This document shows, one piece after another, positions 10,752 to 49,507 of a stretch of DNA of 64,000 nucleotides. The first letter of the stretch is position 1. Each line of letters begins with the position of its first letter. The DNA is taken from assembly GCF_988243305.1 (NCBI RefSeq), contig NZ_OZ547136.1; one strand, given 5' to 3'. Below the pieces are notes generated by a model. That model saw only the letters and a program-made list of their open reading frames with translations. It did no database searches and had not been told where the DNA came from. A program made the position numbers and the translations under genes.

Positions 10752-10815
10752 AAGCAAACTGTGCAATGAAAAACAGGAGCCATCTGGCTCCTGTTTGCAT
10801 TTCTGGCGATGGTGT

Positions 10816-25228: not shown

Positions 25229-26476
<1,248 letters not shown>

Positions 26477-26479
26477 CTA

Positions 26480-26501
26480 AAACATAGCCTTTGCTATGTT
26501 T
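26480..26501. promoter_or_regulatory. MntR operator palindrome AAACATAGC-CTTT-GCTATGTTT in the mntH leader
   Basis: Perfect 9-4-9 inverted repeat about 13 bp upstream of the mntH start codon. Confidence 0.75.
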
Positions 26502-26516
26502 CATGCTATGCCAAAC

Positions 26517-26535
26517 GAGAATGATTATCAAATTC
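26517..26535. promoter_or_regulatory. Fur-box-like site GAGAATGATTATCAAATTC upstream of mntH
   Basis: Close match to the 19 bp Fur consensus GATAATGATAATCATTATC, adjacent to the MntR palindrome. Confidence 0.65.
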
Positions 26536-26802
26536 ATTTAAATGGGTTGTGGTGATTTCTCTGATAGACCAGGATTATGACTACGAAAAGATTGATGACT
26601 TGAATGTTATGGTTATGTTTAATGTTAGCACATTTACATAACTTTCAGCTTCCATACACAACATAGCAGAAATGTATGACAGCTCACTATTTTTGAAGCT
26701 TGTCACAGGACGTCATTATAGTGTGTGTCAGATCTCGTTTTCCTTAACCATGTTACATAGAATGTGCACGGAAATTTAACCTGCCTCATATTTGGAGCAA
26801 AT

Positions 26803-28005
26803 ATGGACCGCGTCCTTCATTTTGTACTGGCACTTGCCGTTGTTGCGATTCTCGCACTGCTGGTAAGCAGCGACCGCAAAAAAATTCGTATCCGTTATGT
26901 TATTCAACTGCTTGTTATCGAAGTGTTACTGGCGTGGTTCTTCCTGAACTCCGACGTTGGTCTAGGCTTCGTGAAAGGCTTCTCCGAAATGTTCGAAAAA
27001 CTGCTCGGATTTGCCAACGAAGGGACTAACTTCGTCTTTGGTAGCATGAATGATCAAGGCCTGGCATTCTTCTTCCTGAAAGTGCTGTGCCCAATCGTCT
27101 TTATCTCTGCATTGATCGGTATTCTCCAGCACATTCGCGTGTTGCCGGTGATTATCCGCGCAATTGGTTTCCTGCTCTCCAAAGTCAACGGCATGGGCAA
27201 ACTGGAATCCTTTAACGCCGTCAGCTCCCTGATTCTGGGTCAGTCTGAAAACTTTATTGCCTATAAAGATATCCTTGGCAAAATCTCCCGTAACCGTATG
27301 TACACCATGGCAGCAACGGCGATGTCCACCGTGTCGATGTCCATCGTTGGTGCATACATGACCATGCTGGAACCGAAATACGTCGTTGCAGCGCTGGTAC
27401 TGAACATGTTCAGCACCTTTATCGTGCTGTCGCTGATCAACCCTTACCGTGTTGATGCCAGCGAAGAGAACATTCAGATGTCCAACCTACACGAAGGTCA
27501 GAGCTTCTTCGAAATGCTGGGTGAATACATTCTGGCAGGTTTCAAAGTTGCCATTATCGTTGCCGCAATGCTGATCGGCTTTATCGCCCTGATCGCCGCG
27601 CTGAACGCACTGTTTGCTACCGTGACTGGCTGGTTTGGCTACAGCATCTCCTTCCAGGGCATCCTGGGCTACATCTTCTATCCGATTGCATGGGTGATGG
27701 GTGTTCCTTCCAGTGAAGCACTGCAAGTGGGCAGTATCATGGCGACCAAACTGGTTTCCAACGAGTTCGTTGCGATGATGGATCTGCAGAAAATTGCTTC
27801 CACGCTCTCTCCGCGTGCTGAAGGCATCATCTCTGTGTTCCTGGTTTCCTTCGCTAACTTCTCTTCTATCGGGATTATCGCCGGTGCGGTTAAAGGCCTG
27901 AATGAAGAGCAAGGTAACGTGGTTTCTCGCTTCGGTCTGAAGCTGGTTTACGGCTCTACCCTGGTGAGTGTGCTGTCTGCGTCAATCGCAGCACTGGTGC
28001 TGTAA
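26803..28005 (+). CDS. nupC: Nucleoside:H+ symporter (CNT family)
   Basis: ORF 26764-28005; I prefer the ATG at 26803 ([10 protein letters not shown]...), preceded by GGAG. 400 aa. Confidence 0.9.
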
Positions 28006-28014
28006 GACCATACA

Positions 28015-28046
28015 TAAAAAAGCCGGGGATCATTCCCCGGCTTTTT
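28015..28046. terminator. Bidirectional rho-independent terminator between nupC and pdeA (AAAAAAGCCGGGGAtcaTTCCCCGGCTTTTTT)
   Basis: GC-rich hairpin flanked by an A-tract and a T-tract between the convergent stops. Confidence 0.85.
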
Positions 28047-38249: not shown

Positions 38250-39014
38250 ATGAAAAAACATCTTTTTACTCTGACACTCTCTTCTGTATTGGCAATACCA
38301 GCAGTATCCCATGCAGAATTTAAAGGCGGTTTTGCTGATATAGGTATTCATTATCTTGACTGGACTAGCAGAACCACTGAGAAATCGTCGACCAAATCAC
38401 ACAAAGATGATTTTGGATATCTGGAACTGGAAGGTGGCGCTAACTTTAGTTGGGGAGAAATGTACGGGTTCTTCGACTGGGAAAACTTTTATAATGATCG
38501 TCATGATAAACCGGGTAGCGAGCAGCGTTATACATTTAAAAATACCAACCGTATTTACCTGGGTGACACCGGATTTAATCTTTACCTGCACACGTATGGT
38601 ACCTACGGGTCTGCGAATCGTGTGAATTTCCACGACGATATGTTCCTGTACGGTGTCGGCTACAATTTCACCGGCAGCGGTTGGTGGTTCAAACCGTTCT
38701 TTGCAAAACGCTATACAGACCAAACCTATTATACCGGCGATAACGGTTATGTCGCCGGTTGGGTTGCAGGTTACAGCTTTATGCTGGGCAGTGAGAAATT
38801 CACCCTCACCAACTGGAACGAGTACGAGTTTGATCGTGATGCCACCTACGCGGCAGGTAATGGCGGCAAAGAAGGTCTGAACGGTGCCGTCGCACTTTGG
38901 TGGAATGCAACTTCACACATCACCACAGGGATTCAGTATCGTTATGCGGATGACAAACTGGGCGAAGATTTTTACCAGGATGCAATAATCTACTCCATCA
39001 AATTTAATTTCTGA
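38250..39014 (+). CDS. yfeN: Putative outer-membrane beta-barrel protein YfeN (possibly a Tsx/OmpK-like nucleoside channel)
   Basis: 254 aa ORF with a signal peptide (MKKHLFTLTLSSVLAIPAVSHA), Tyr/Gly/Asn/Trp-rich composition and a C-terminal ...KFNF typical of OMP barrels. Divergent from xapA. Confidence 0.7.
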   Translation: MKKHLFTLTLSSVLAIPAVSHAEFKGGFADIGIHYLDWTSRTTEKSSTKSHKDDFGYLELEGGANFSWGEMYGFFDWENFYNDRHDKPGSEQRYTFKNTNRIYLGDTGFNLYLHTYGTYGSANRVNFHDDMFLYGVGYNFTGSGWWFKPFFAKRYTDQTYYTGDNGYVAGWVAGYSFMLGSEKFTLTNWNEYEFDRDATYAAGNGGKEGLNGAVALWWNATSHITTGIQYRYADDKLGEDFYQDAIIYSIKFNF

Positions 39015-41282: not shown

Positions 41283-43307
<2,025 letters not shown>

Positions 43308-46524: not shown

Positions 46525-46552
46525 AAAAAAGCACCTTTTCAGGTGCTTTTTT
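46525..46552 (+). terminator. cysK terminator (AAAAAAGCACCttttcAGGTGCTTTTTT)
   Basis: Perfect hairpin plus T-tract 22 nt after the cysK stop. Confidence 0.85.
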
Positions 46553-49480: not shown

Positions 49481-49507
49481 AAAATGGCGCCCATCGGCGC
49501 CATTTTT
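49481..49507. terminator. Bidirectional terminator between crr and pdxK (AAAATGGCGCCcatcGGCGCCATTTTTT)
   Basis: Perfect hairpin with flanking A and T runs; overlaps the pdxK stop codon. Confidence 0.85.

Follow-up and report, generated by a model that had tools for sequence, protein, structure and literature searches.

Operators of the DtxR/MntR and Fur families can overlap core promoters, B. subtilis MntR being one example, and the LacI operator O1 at +11 is an operator close to a start site. In systems of this type a metal-loaded dimer occupies an inverted repeat over the -10/+1 region or over the -35 element and blocks productive initiation, and by analogy the same may be proposed for mntH of E. 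coli. The sequence motif found at mntH is specific to enterobacterial MntR. The abstracts of Patzer and Hantke from 2001 and of Kehres from 2002 reportedly describe an MntR footprint over a near-perfect palindrome, a Fur motif that overlaps the likely -35 element, an inverted repeat between the likely -10 element and the ribosome binding site and an OxyR motif just upstream of the -35, and Kehres is said to call the promoter hexamers 'likely'. A 2021 review describes separate MntR, Fur and OxyR sites in the mntH promoter of E. coli, with both Fur and MntR acting as repressors, and credits Patzer & Hantke 2001 with Mn2+-dependent protection by MntR and with derepression in an mntR mutant (PMC8632737). 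The site analysed here is this already known Fur/MntR(/OxyR) promoter of mntH; it is the very locus described for E. coli and Salmonella by Patzer & Hantke and by Kehres, and there is no substantive difference between the two. A full-text literature search combining the operator sequence with MntR gave nothing beyond chance matches in primer tables. Bryant 2014 names mntH solely as an insertion site.

The window, by which we mean the whole 64-kb stretch of DNA that was analysed, is a piece of the E. coli chromosome, and the elements of interest lie in its mntH-nupC intergenic region. A 501-bp query around them matched 5424 of the 5426 complete E. coli genomes at an identity of at least 95%, and positions in the window are converted to K-12 coordinates by adding 2,486,239. 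The mntH coding sequence extends over 25229..26467 on the minus strand, both as an open reading frame and in the RefSeq annotation, and encodes an NRAMP Mn2+/H+ symporter of 412 aa, an assignment in line with the NCBIfam model NF001923 (score of 622.6 bits, cutoff 430). Its start codon at 26467 is the one annotated by RefSeq, including in K-12 (b2392). The divergent gene on the plus strand is nupC with a start at 26803, so that the two ATGs are separated by 336 nt in E. coli. The K-12 genome also carries an annotated mntR gene (b0817).

Directly in front of mntH, at 26480..26501, we found a perfect 9-4-9 inverted repeat that reads AAACATAGC-AAAG-GCTATGTTT on the mntH strand, its two 9-nt arms (26480-26488 and 26493-26501) being 100% complementary and separated by a 4-nt spacer. 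On the mntH strand, TTGATAATCATTCTCGTTTGGCATAGCATG is followed by the palindrome AAACATAGCAAAGGCTATGTTT, then by TAGAGGCACAAG and the ATG. With 12 nt between the palindrome and the ATG, the last base of the palindrome is at -13 from the A, in full agreement with the original prediction of a perfect 9-4-9 repeat about 13 bp from the mntH start codon. The same prediction had the palindrome overlap the likely ribosome binding site region. The repeat abuts the Shine-Dalgarno (SD) sequence GAGG (26474..26477 on the minus strand, 6 nt before the ATG), but the SD itself, starting 2 nt past the palindrome, lies outside of it and there is no overlap. In the window as a whole, perfect 9-N4-9 palindromes occur five times where 0.31 would be expected; the four besides this one are GC-rich and terminator-like, and symmetry alone is not decisive for the identity of an operator. 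The mntH palindrome, which has a single match in the 64-kb window at up to three mismatches (0.03 expected), is judged to be real because of its identity and its conservation rather than its symmetry. A chance palindrome was rejected on the basis of this conservation and of the motif that it has in common with other MntR targets.

Conservation was followed across the mntH loci of 80 Enterobacteriaceae species whose MntH proteins share 89-99% identity, using an 80-row alignment in which the window is joined by 79 further species and, for the operator core, a set of 81 sequences. The core AAACATAGCAAAGGCTAT was identical in all 81, and the AAAG spacer was identical in every locus except one. The distance between palindrome and ATG stayed within 9-13 nt across species, the exception being one locus with a 16-bp duplication, and both the mntH ATG and the GG of the SD were invariant in the 80-row alignment, nearly all species compared using either GAGG or GGGG. 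Changes in the right arm were never compensated in the left arm, the half-sites being kept independently of each other. As judged from this alignment, the operator is conserved among relatives as a DNA site.

Within the E. coli genome, the inverted repeat core ATAGC-N4-GCTAT is common to mntH and to dps, mntP and mntS, whose promoters are reported to be under MntR control. The single dps site (AAGTATAGCACCGGCTATGTGT) precedes the ATG of its gene by 46 nt, and the two mntP sites (GAATTTAGCCAAAGCTATGTTT and AGACATAGCTTAGGCTATATTA) precede theirs by about 420 nt and about 380 nt. All three were recovered with no more than three mismatches, where the chance expectation was zero, and the mntS site came from a looser scan. 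At mntP (yebN) the two copies of the inverted repeat match the motif at 15/18 each and, unlike the mntH operator, are far from the ATG. By published accounts MntR activates mntP, the leader of which contains a yybP-ykoY riboswitch according to a review, and the opposite outcome at mntP and mntH, brought about by the same protein and the same motif, follows from the position of the sites. At mntS/rybA, the motif AGATATAGCACAGGCTATATTA (14/18) coincides with the annotated rybA 5' end: as at mntH, the operator overlaps the promoter, with the annotated 5' end falling inside the operator spacer. The two differ in that mntS has no adjacent Fur box, and in that the mntS -10 element overlaps the first four bases of the operator whereas one nucleotide separates the mntH operator from its -10.

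The Fur box of mntH, GAATTTGATAATCATTCTC, occupies 26517..26535 on the minus strand and matches the consensus GATAATGATAATCATTATC at 15 of 19 positions. A consensus search allowing up to three mismatches gave no match in the window; the 19-mer emerged by scoring, where 15/19 was the joint top score of the 64 kb. The two further Fur-like matches with this score are inside the coding sequences of xapA and ligA and are not real sites. A gap of 15 nt separates the 19-mer from the palindrome, and both this distance and the match bear out the original prediction of a Fur-like 19-mer 15 bp further upstream. Using an information-theory model, Chen et al. 2007 (PMC2189734) reported a Fur cluster of two sites, 25 bp and 19.9 bits centred at U00096.2 position 2,510,784, which corresponds to 26523 in the window, and they credit Patzer & Hantke for the mntH Fur cluster. 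The 19-mer contains the -35 hexamer TTGATA and most of the spacer between the -35 and -10 elements, and in the 80-row alignment its TTGATAA, ATT and C are invariant. Directly upstream of the -35, at 26542..26578 on the minus strand, lies the best match of the window to the classical OxyR consensus (13/20), which also holds a conserved block, CTATCAGAGAAATCA, and which we tentatively assign as an OxyR site. Taken together, the conservation, the shared motif and the Fur scoring show that the identities originally given to the two elements before mntH, an MntR operator and a Fur box, were right.

These sites are organised around a promoter. A promoter scan returned TTGATA (26526..26531, minus strand) as the -35 and TAGCAT (26503..26508, minus strand) as the -10 element, with a spacer of 17 nt and a score of 9/12. 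The -35 was invariant in 80 of 80 rows, and in the -10 element positions 1, 2 and 6 were invariant: the hexamer varied between species as TAGCAT, TAATAT, TAACAT, TAGCTT, TAGTTT and TAGCCT, but always conformed to TAnnnT. The distance from TTGATAAT to the palindrome was either 29 or 30 nt, and the spacer between -35 and -10 is therefore 16 or 17 nt. Such a pattern of TTGATAA, TAnnnT and 16-17-nt spacing is the signature of a working sigma70 promoter, and the promoter that is conserved is the same as that found by the consensus scan (TTGATA-17-TAGCAT).

For the position of the transcription start site (TSS), we turned to published start sites from E. coli and Salmonella. In the E. coli dataset of Kim et al. 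2012 (PMC3415461), two distal TSSs are found on the mntH (minus) strand, one at 26614 (147 nt before the ATG, extended -10 TGcTAACAT, 5 reads) and one at 26653 (186 nt before the ATG, TGcTATGTT, 11 reads), together with two plus-strand starts of nupC, namely a 'nupC' TSS at 26455 inside codon 5 of mntH (13 reads) and a second one at 26770. Transcription from 26455 runs antisense over the palindrome and the Fur box. The Salmonella 4/74 atlas (Srikumar et al. 2015, PMC4643027) lists for mntH a primary TSS at 2,522,831, the usage of which goes down from 67.6 in ESP to 10.2 in macrophages, and a secondary TSS at 2,522,704 that goes up 3.8-fold, from 20.0 to 75.6, while the nupC TSSs are at 2,522,664, 2,522,729, 2,522,890 and 2,522,986. 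We anchored these positions using the distance between the mntH and nupC ATGs, which is 343 nt in two Salmonella loci. The outer nupC TSSs are 322 nt apart (2,522,986 - 2,522,664), which equals 343 - 33 + 12 and is as expected if they are the homologues of the E. coli starts at 26770 and 26455; this puts the Salmonella mntH ATG at 2,522,676, a coordinate that is derived from the anchors and not from the 4/74 genome sequence. With the ATG in this position, every TSS of the atlas is a purine 6-8 nt past a recognisable -10 element, and three Salmonella TSSs coincide base for base with the E. coli TSSs at 26455, 26614 and 26770. The E. coli start at 26614 is thus homologous to the Salmonella 'primary' TSS that goes down in macrophages. 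One Salmonella plus-strand start, 3.1-fold up in macrophages, falls inside the Fur box and likewise gives rise to transcription antisense over the operators.

The Salmonella mntH start that is induced in macrophages is the bracketed A in TTGATA-17-TAGCAT-GAAACAT-[A]GCAAAGG, 28 nt before the ATG. By homology, the regulated TSS of E. coli would be at 26495 on the minus strand, an A at position 7 of the palindrome, giving a leader of 28 nt; the position is experimental for Salmonella and predicted for E. coli. The single E. coli TSS dataset that we consulted (Kim 2012, PMC3415461) has no 5' end at the proximal promoter or at 26495; its data probably come from repressing conditions. We also considered GATAAT within the Fur box as an alternative -10 element, which would give a TSS at about 26517 and a 50-nt leader containing the whole palindrome, and rejected it, as such a promoter would have to use CCACAA for its -35 and as the start mapped in Salmonella corresponds to 26495. 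The start is predicted within and not downstream of the palindrome, and the start codon of mntH is at 26467, so that neither of the two findings named as speaking against the original prediction applies. It is the short leader of only about 28 nt that accounts for an operator as close as 12 nt to the start codon, rather than a site deep inside a leader or an unusual mode of action.

Relative to +1 at 26495, the OxyR-like site extends from -83 to -47, the Fur 19-mer from -40 to -22, the -35 hexamer from -36 to -31, the -10 element from -13 to -8, the MntR operator from -6 to +16 and the SD from +19 to +22, with the AUG at +29. We consider it very probable that the two elements are the MntR and Fur operators of a proximal, metal-regulated mntH promoter, with the TSS inside the left arm of the palindrome, and that RNA polymerase is blocked at this promoter. 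In such a scenario, the sigma70 promoter TTGATA-17-TAGCAT would direct initiation about 7 nt further on, at the A in the left palindrome arm (26495). Mn2+-loaded MntR on the palindrome (-6 to +16) would cover both the TSS and the -10 at its downstream edge, and Fe2+-loaded Fur on the Fur box (-40 to -22) would cover the -35 and the spacer, each of the two, independently of the other, excluding or trapping RNA polymerase at the promoter. Since both repressor sites lie within the span of promoter-bound RNA polymerase, either one alone could block productive initiation. We infer steric exclusion as the mode of repression, the sequence alone being compatible with either exclusion or trapping of the polymerase. 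The OxyR-like site (-83 to -47) would fit activation by peroxide. The 28-nt leader from 26495 is predicted to be unstructured (z of +1.56), and its GAGG, 6 nt before the AUG, would serve as SD. The original prediction had gone further and suggested that MntR may block initiation or very early elongation rather than only promoter binding. This reading finds no support, since an operator from -6 to +16 corresponds to ordinary promoter-overlapping repression. Being a DNA-binding protein, MntR cannot block translation initiation, and the SD is located outside the palindrome. The idea of interference with early elongation may hold only in the altered form of a candidate roadblock for transcripts that come from the distal promoters.

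The distal TSSs at 26614 and 26653 are upstream of both operators, and transcripts from the distal promoters therefore contain both. On the same strand, a strong RNA 3' end was mapped by Term-seq to 26549 (K-12 position 2,512,788) in two data sheets of Adams et al. 2021 (PMC7815308), whose filter implies that a TSS precedes each listed 3' end by more than 20 nt. This 3' end is 82 nt before the mntH ATG, the Fur 19-mer follows it at 14 nt and the -35 at 18 nt, and neither folding (z of -0.34 and -1.36) nor a terminator scan revealed a terminator hairpin before it. The literature searched contains no description of an sRNA from between mntH and nupC. One explanation would be that, beyond promoter occlusion, bound Fur and MntR, or else a polymerase waiting at the proximal promoter, act as roadblocks to distal transcription, generating the end at 26549 and gating read-through into ypeD (see below) and mntH. 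The existence of distal TSSs on the mntH strand, the implied upstream TSS for a strong 3' end that no hairpin precedes, and the distances of 14 nt to the Fur 19-mer and 18 nt to the -35 are all consistent with this. From the active site of a stalled polymerase to its front edge it is about as far as from 26549 to the Fur box or the -35. The argument is purely positional, however, and Rho termination, processing or exonuclease trimming would explain the 3' end equally well; we regard the roadblock as a possible but on balance unlikely proposal.

The distal transcripts also bear on a different explanation of the palindrome, according to which it acts mainly as RNA, as a Mn2+-sensing, terminator-like hairpin in the 5' UTR of mntH. 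The abstract of Shi, Zhao and Kong from 2014 is said to describe a GCUAUG that pairs alternatively with either of two CAUAGC copies, and we take these sequences to be the MntR palindrome and the CATAGC upstream of it. Reviews credit Shi et al. 2014 with a terminator-like riboswitch that responds to Mn2+ in the 5' UTR of Salmonella mntH (PMC8632737 and other reviews), an element said to be conserved in E. coli and other enterics. Physically this is the same sequence as the operator, and it is likewise proposed to mediate Mn2+ control of mntH, but the riboswitch needs transcription to begin ahead of the palindrome, at a distal promoter. Along with the claim itself and its reported conservation across enterics, the folding of the RNA speaks for this explanation: the full palindrome folds with -9.4 kcal/mol and a z of -4.95 and is followed by UUUU, and transcripts from 26614 and 26653 would include the hairpin. 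The phylogenetic record does not bear it out. Among 67 distinct sequences, seven of the nine pairs never vary and not a single pair has changed on both sides, so that there is no covariation. A C-G pair of the hairpin is broken without compensation in 50 of the 67, another pair in 13 of the 67, and in those genera in which the C-G pair is broken, which are most genera, the stem is reduced to 5 bp and -4.0 kcal/mol. What serves as the upstream 'CAUAGC copy' in this model is the -10 hexamer, with its TAnnnT variation between species, and no compensatory change was seen for the alternative pairing with this copy.

Evidence at the level of termination points in the same direction. The stem is rich in A and U, with three of the four U's paired inside the full stem, a terminator scan found no terminator-like site at the palindrome, and an Rfam scan of the region returned only eukaryotic families far below threshold and no family here. 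The E. coli Term-seq tables contain no 3' end at the U-run, the sole entry with the prefix 25127 being 2512788. Furthermore, as the regulated TSS is placed inside the left arm, the regulated mRNA would keep only AGC of this arm, and the hairpin could form only on transcripts from the distal promoters. A palindrome that works mainly as a riboswitch is thus rather improbable to us, and the DNA operator fully accounts for the conservation of the hairpin; in Salmonella and Escherichia, the hairpin may have an extra, minor RNA-level role on transcripts from the distal promoters.

A further explanation invokes translation of the intergenic region. RefSeq annotates a small ORF of 29 aa, ypeD (b4819), at 26448..26537 on the minus strand, which spans the Fur box, the palindrome and the mntH start. 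The ORF comes from ribosome profiling (reported detection by Ribo-RET/Ribo-Api) and was reported as conserved in Salmonella and Citrobacter koseri. Its ATG is upstream of the proximal TSS, which means that YpeD could be translated only from distal-promoter RNA. If the region were conserved for encoding YpeD, the palindrome and the Fur-like sequence would be by-products of coding, and the RefSeq annotation, the detection by ribosome profiling, the reported conservation in the two other genera and the retention of the ypeD ATG in 72 of 81 sequences all fit with this idea. The reading frame itself does not: the start codon is lost in the other 9 of the 81 sequences, in three lineages of Escherichia ypeD ends after only 8 codons, and in most genera a 1-nt indel leads to an ORF of 11 or 23 aa in another frame, so that across species versions of 8, 11, 23, 24, 25, 29 and 31 aa occur in differing frames. 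The DNA of the region lacks third-position periodicity, with whole blocks being invariant, and the sole conserved stretches of YpeD, LIIIL and KHSKGY, are what the Fur box and the MntR operator yield when translated in this frame. As the frame is not kept, we rejected coding constraint on ypeD as the source of the conservation and regard this explanation as extremely improbable, in favour of two repressor operators at the proximal promoter.

Collectively, our analysis re-identifies a long-studied promoter and leaves the understanding of mntH regulation unchanged. What it adds to the known mntH promoter is that the sites are invariant across 80 species, that the -10 element carries a TAnnnT signature and that the Salmonella atlas places the regulated TSS inside the operator. 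The layout with two promoters reconciles the conflicting models of an operator between the -10 and the ribosome binding site on the one hand and of a riboswitch hairpin in the 5' UTR on the other. The apparent conservation of YpeD is that of operator DNA, which calls for caution in the annotation of small ORFs within regulatory DNA. Finally, the unexplained strong RNA 3' end just upstream of the Fur box represents a testable candidate for a protein roadblock. If this were true, the same two DNA sites would control mntH at both initiation and elongation, they would set the amount of RNA with ypeD and the palindrome hairpin that reads through from the constitutive distal promoters into mntH, and the abundant short RNA that ends at 26549 might have a function of its own.

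Two distal mntH starts, at 26614 and 26653 on the minus strand (Kim 2012), are preceded by the extended -10 elements TGcTAACAT and TGcTATGTT, respectively. The Salmonella homologue of the 26614 start is classed as 'primary' and falls 6.6-fold in macrophages, a response opposite to that of the proximal mntH TSS. On the same strand, the Term-seq tables of Adams 2021 place a strong RNA 3' end at 26549 (K-12 position 2,512,788), which is 82 nt 5' of the mntH ATG and 14 nt 5' of the Fur 19-mer, and distal RNAs stopping at this base would measure ~66 or ~105 nt. We found no terminator hairpin before the 3' end, and a roadblock, Rho or processing may be its cause. The end falls within an OxyR-like site (26542-26578), the top-scoring match to the OxyR consensus in the window (13/20), which overlaps the conserved block CTATCAGAGAAATCA immediately 5' of the proximal -35; the half-site at this block is better in most other genera than in E. 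coli. At 26546, immediately upstream of ypeD, the window reads ACAACCC versus ACAATCC in the K-12 sequence quoted by the Term-seq table, and this one-base difference from K-12 MG1655 means that the window is not MG1655.

Transcription also starts on the opposite strand. A TSS assigned to 'nupC' lies at 26455 (plus strand), within mntH codon 5, behind the promoter TTGCGT-16-TACTCT, and its RNA crosses both the MntR palindrome and the Fur box in antisense; Salmonella has a TSS at the identical base. A further plus-strand Salmonella start, with the element TGcTATGTT, is located inside the Fur box (~1448 in the Salmonella mntH locus L014, equivalent to E. coli 26520); in macrophages it goes up 3.1-fold, alongside the proximal start of mntH. 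The corresponding E. coli -10, TATGCC, is weaker.

Elsewhere in the window, Fur-consensus matches of 15/19 occur in the coding sequences of xapA (38337-38355) and ligA (43232-43250), both probably by chance. Besides the MntR palindrome there are four perfect 9-N4-9 palindromes (10773-10794, 28021-28042, 46528-46549 and 49483-49504), all of them GC-rich, and the one at 28021, right behind the nupC stop codon, looks like a terminator.

Among the collected mntH loci, the distance from the MntR operator to the ATG is 9-13 nt in all but that of Trabulsiella odontotermitis (L030), where 16 bp of the SD region are duplicated in tandem between the two, reading CAGAGGCAGAA TATTT CAGAGGCAGAAA (~1451-1500 in the locus). 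RefSeq places ypeD (b4819), encoding the 29-aa small protein YpeD, at 26448-26537 on the minus strand of the window, so that its codons cover the Fur box and the MntR palindrome as well as the start of mntH. In a comparison of 80 Enterobacteriaceae species neither frame nor length of YpeD was kept, the product shrinking to 8 aa in three lineages of Escherichia, whereas elsewhere other frames give lengths of 11 or 23 aa. The 'conserved' YpeD residues are a codon reading of operator DNA.
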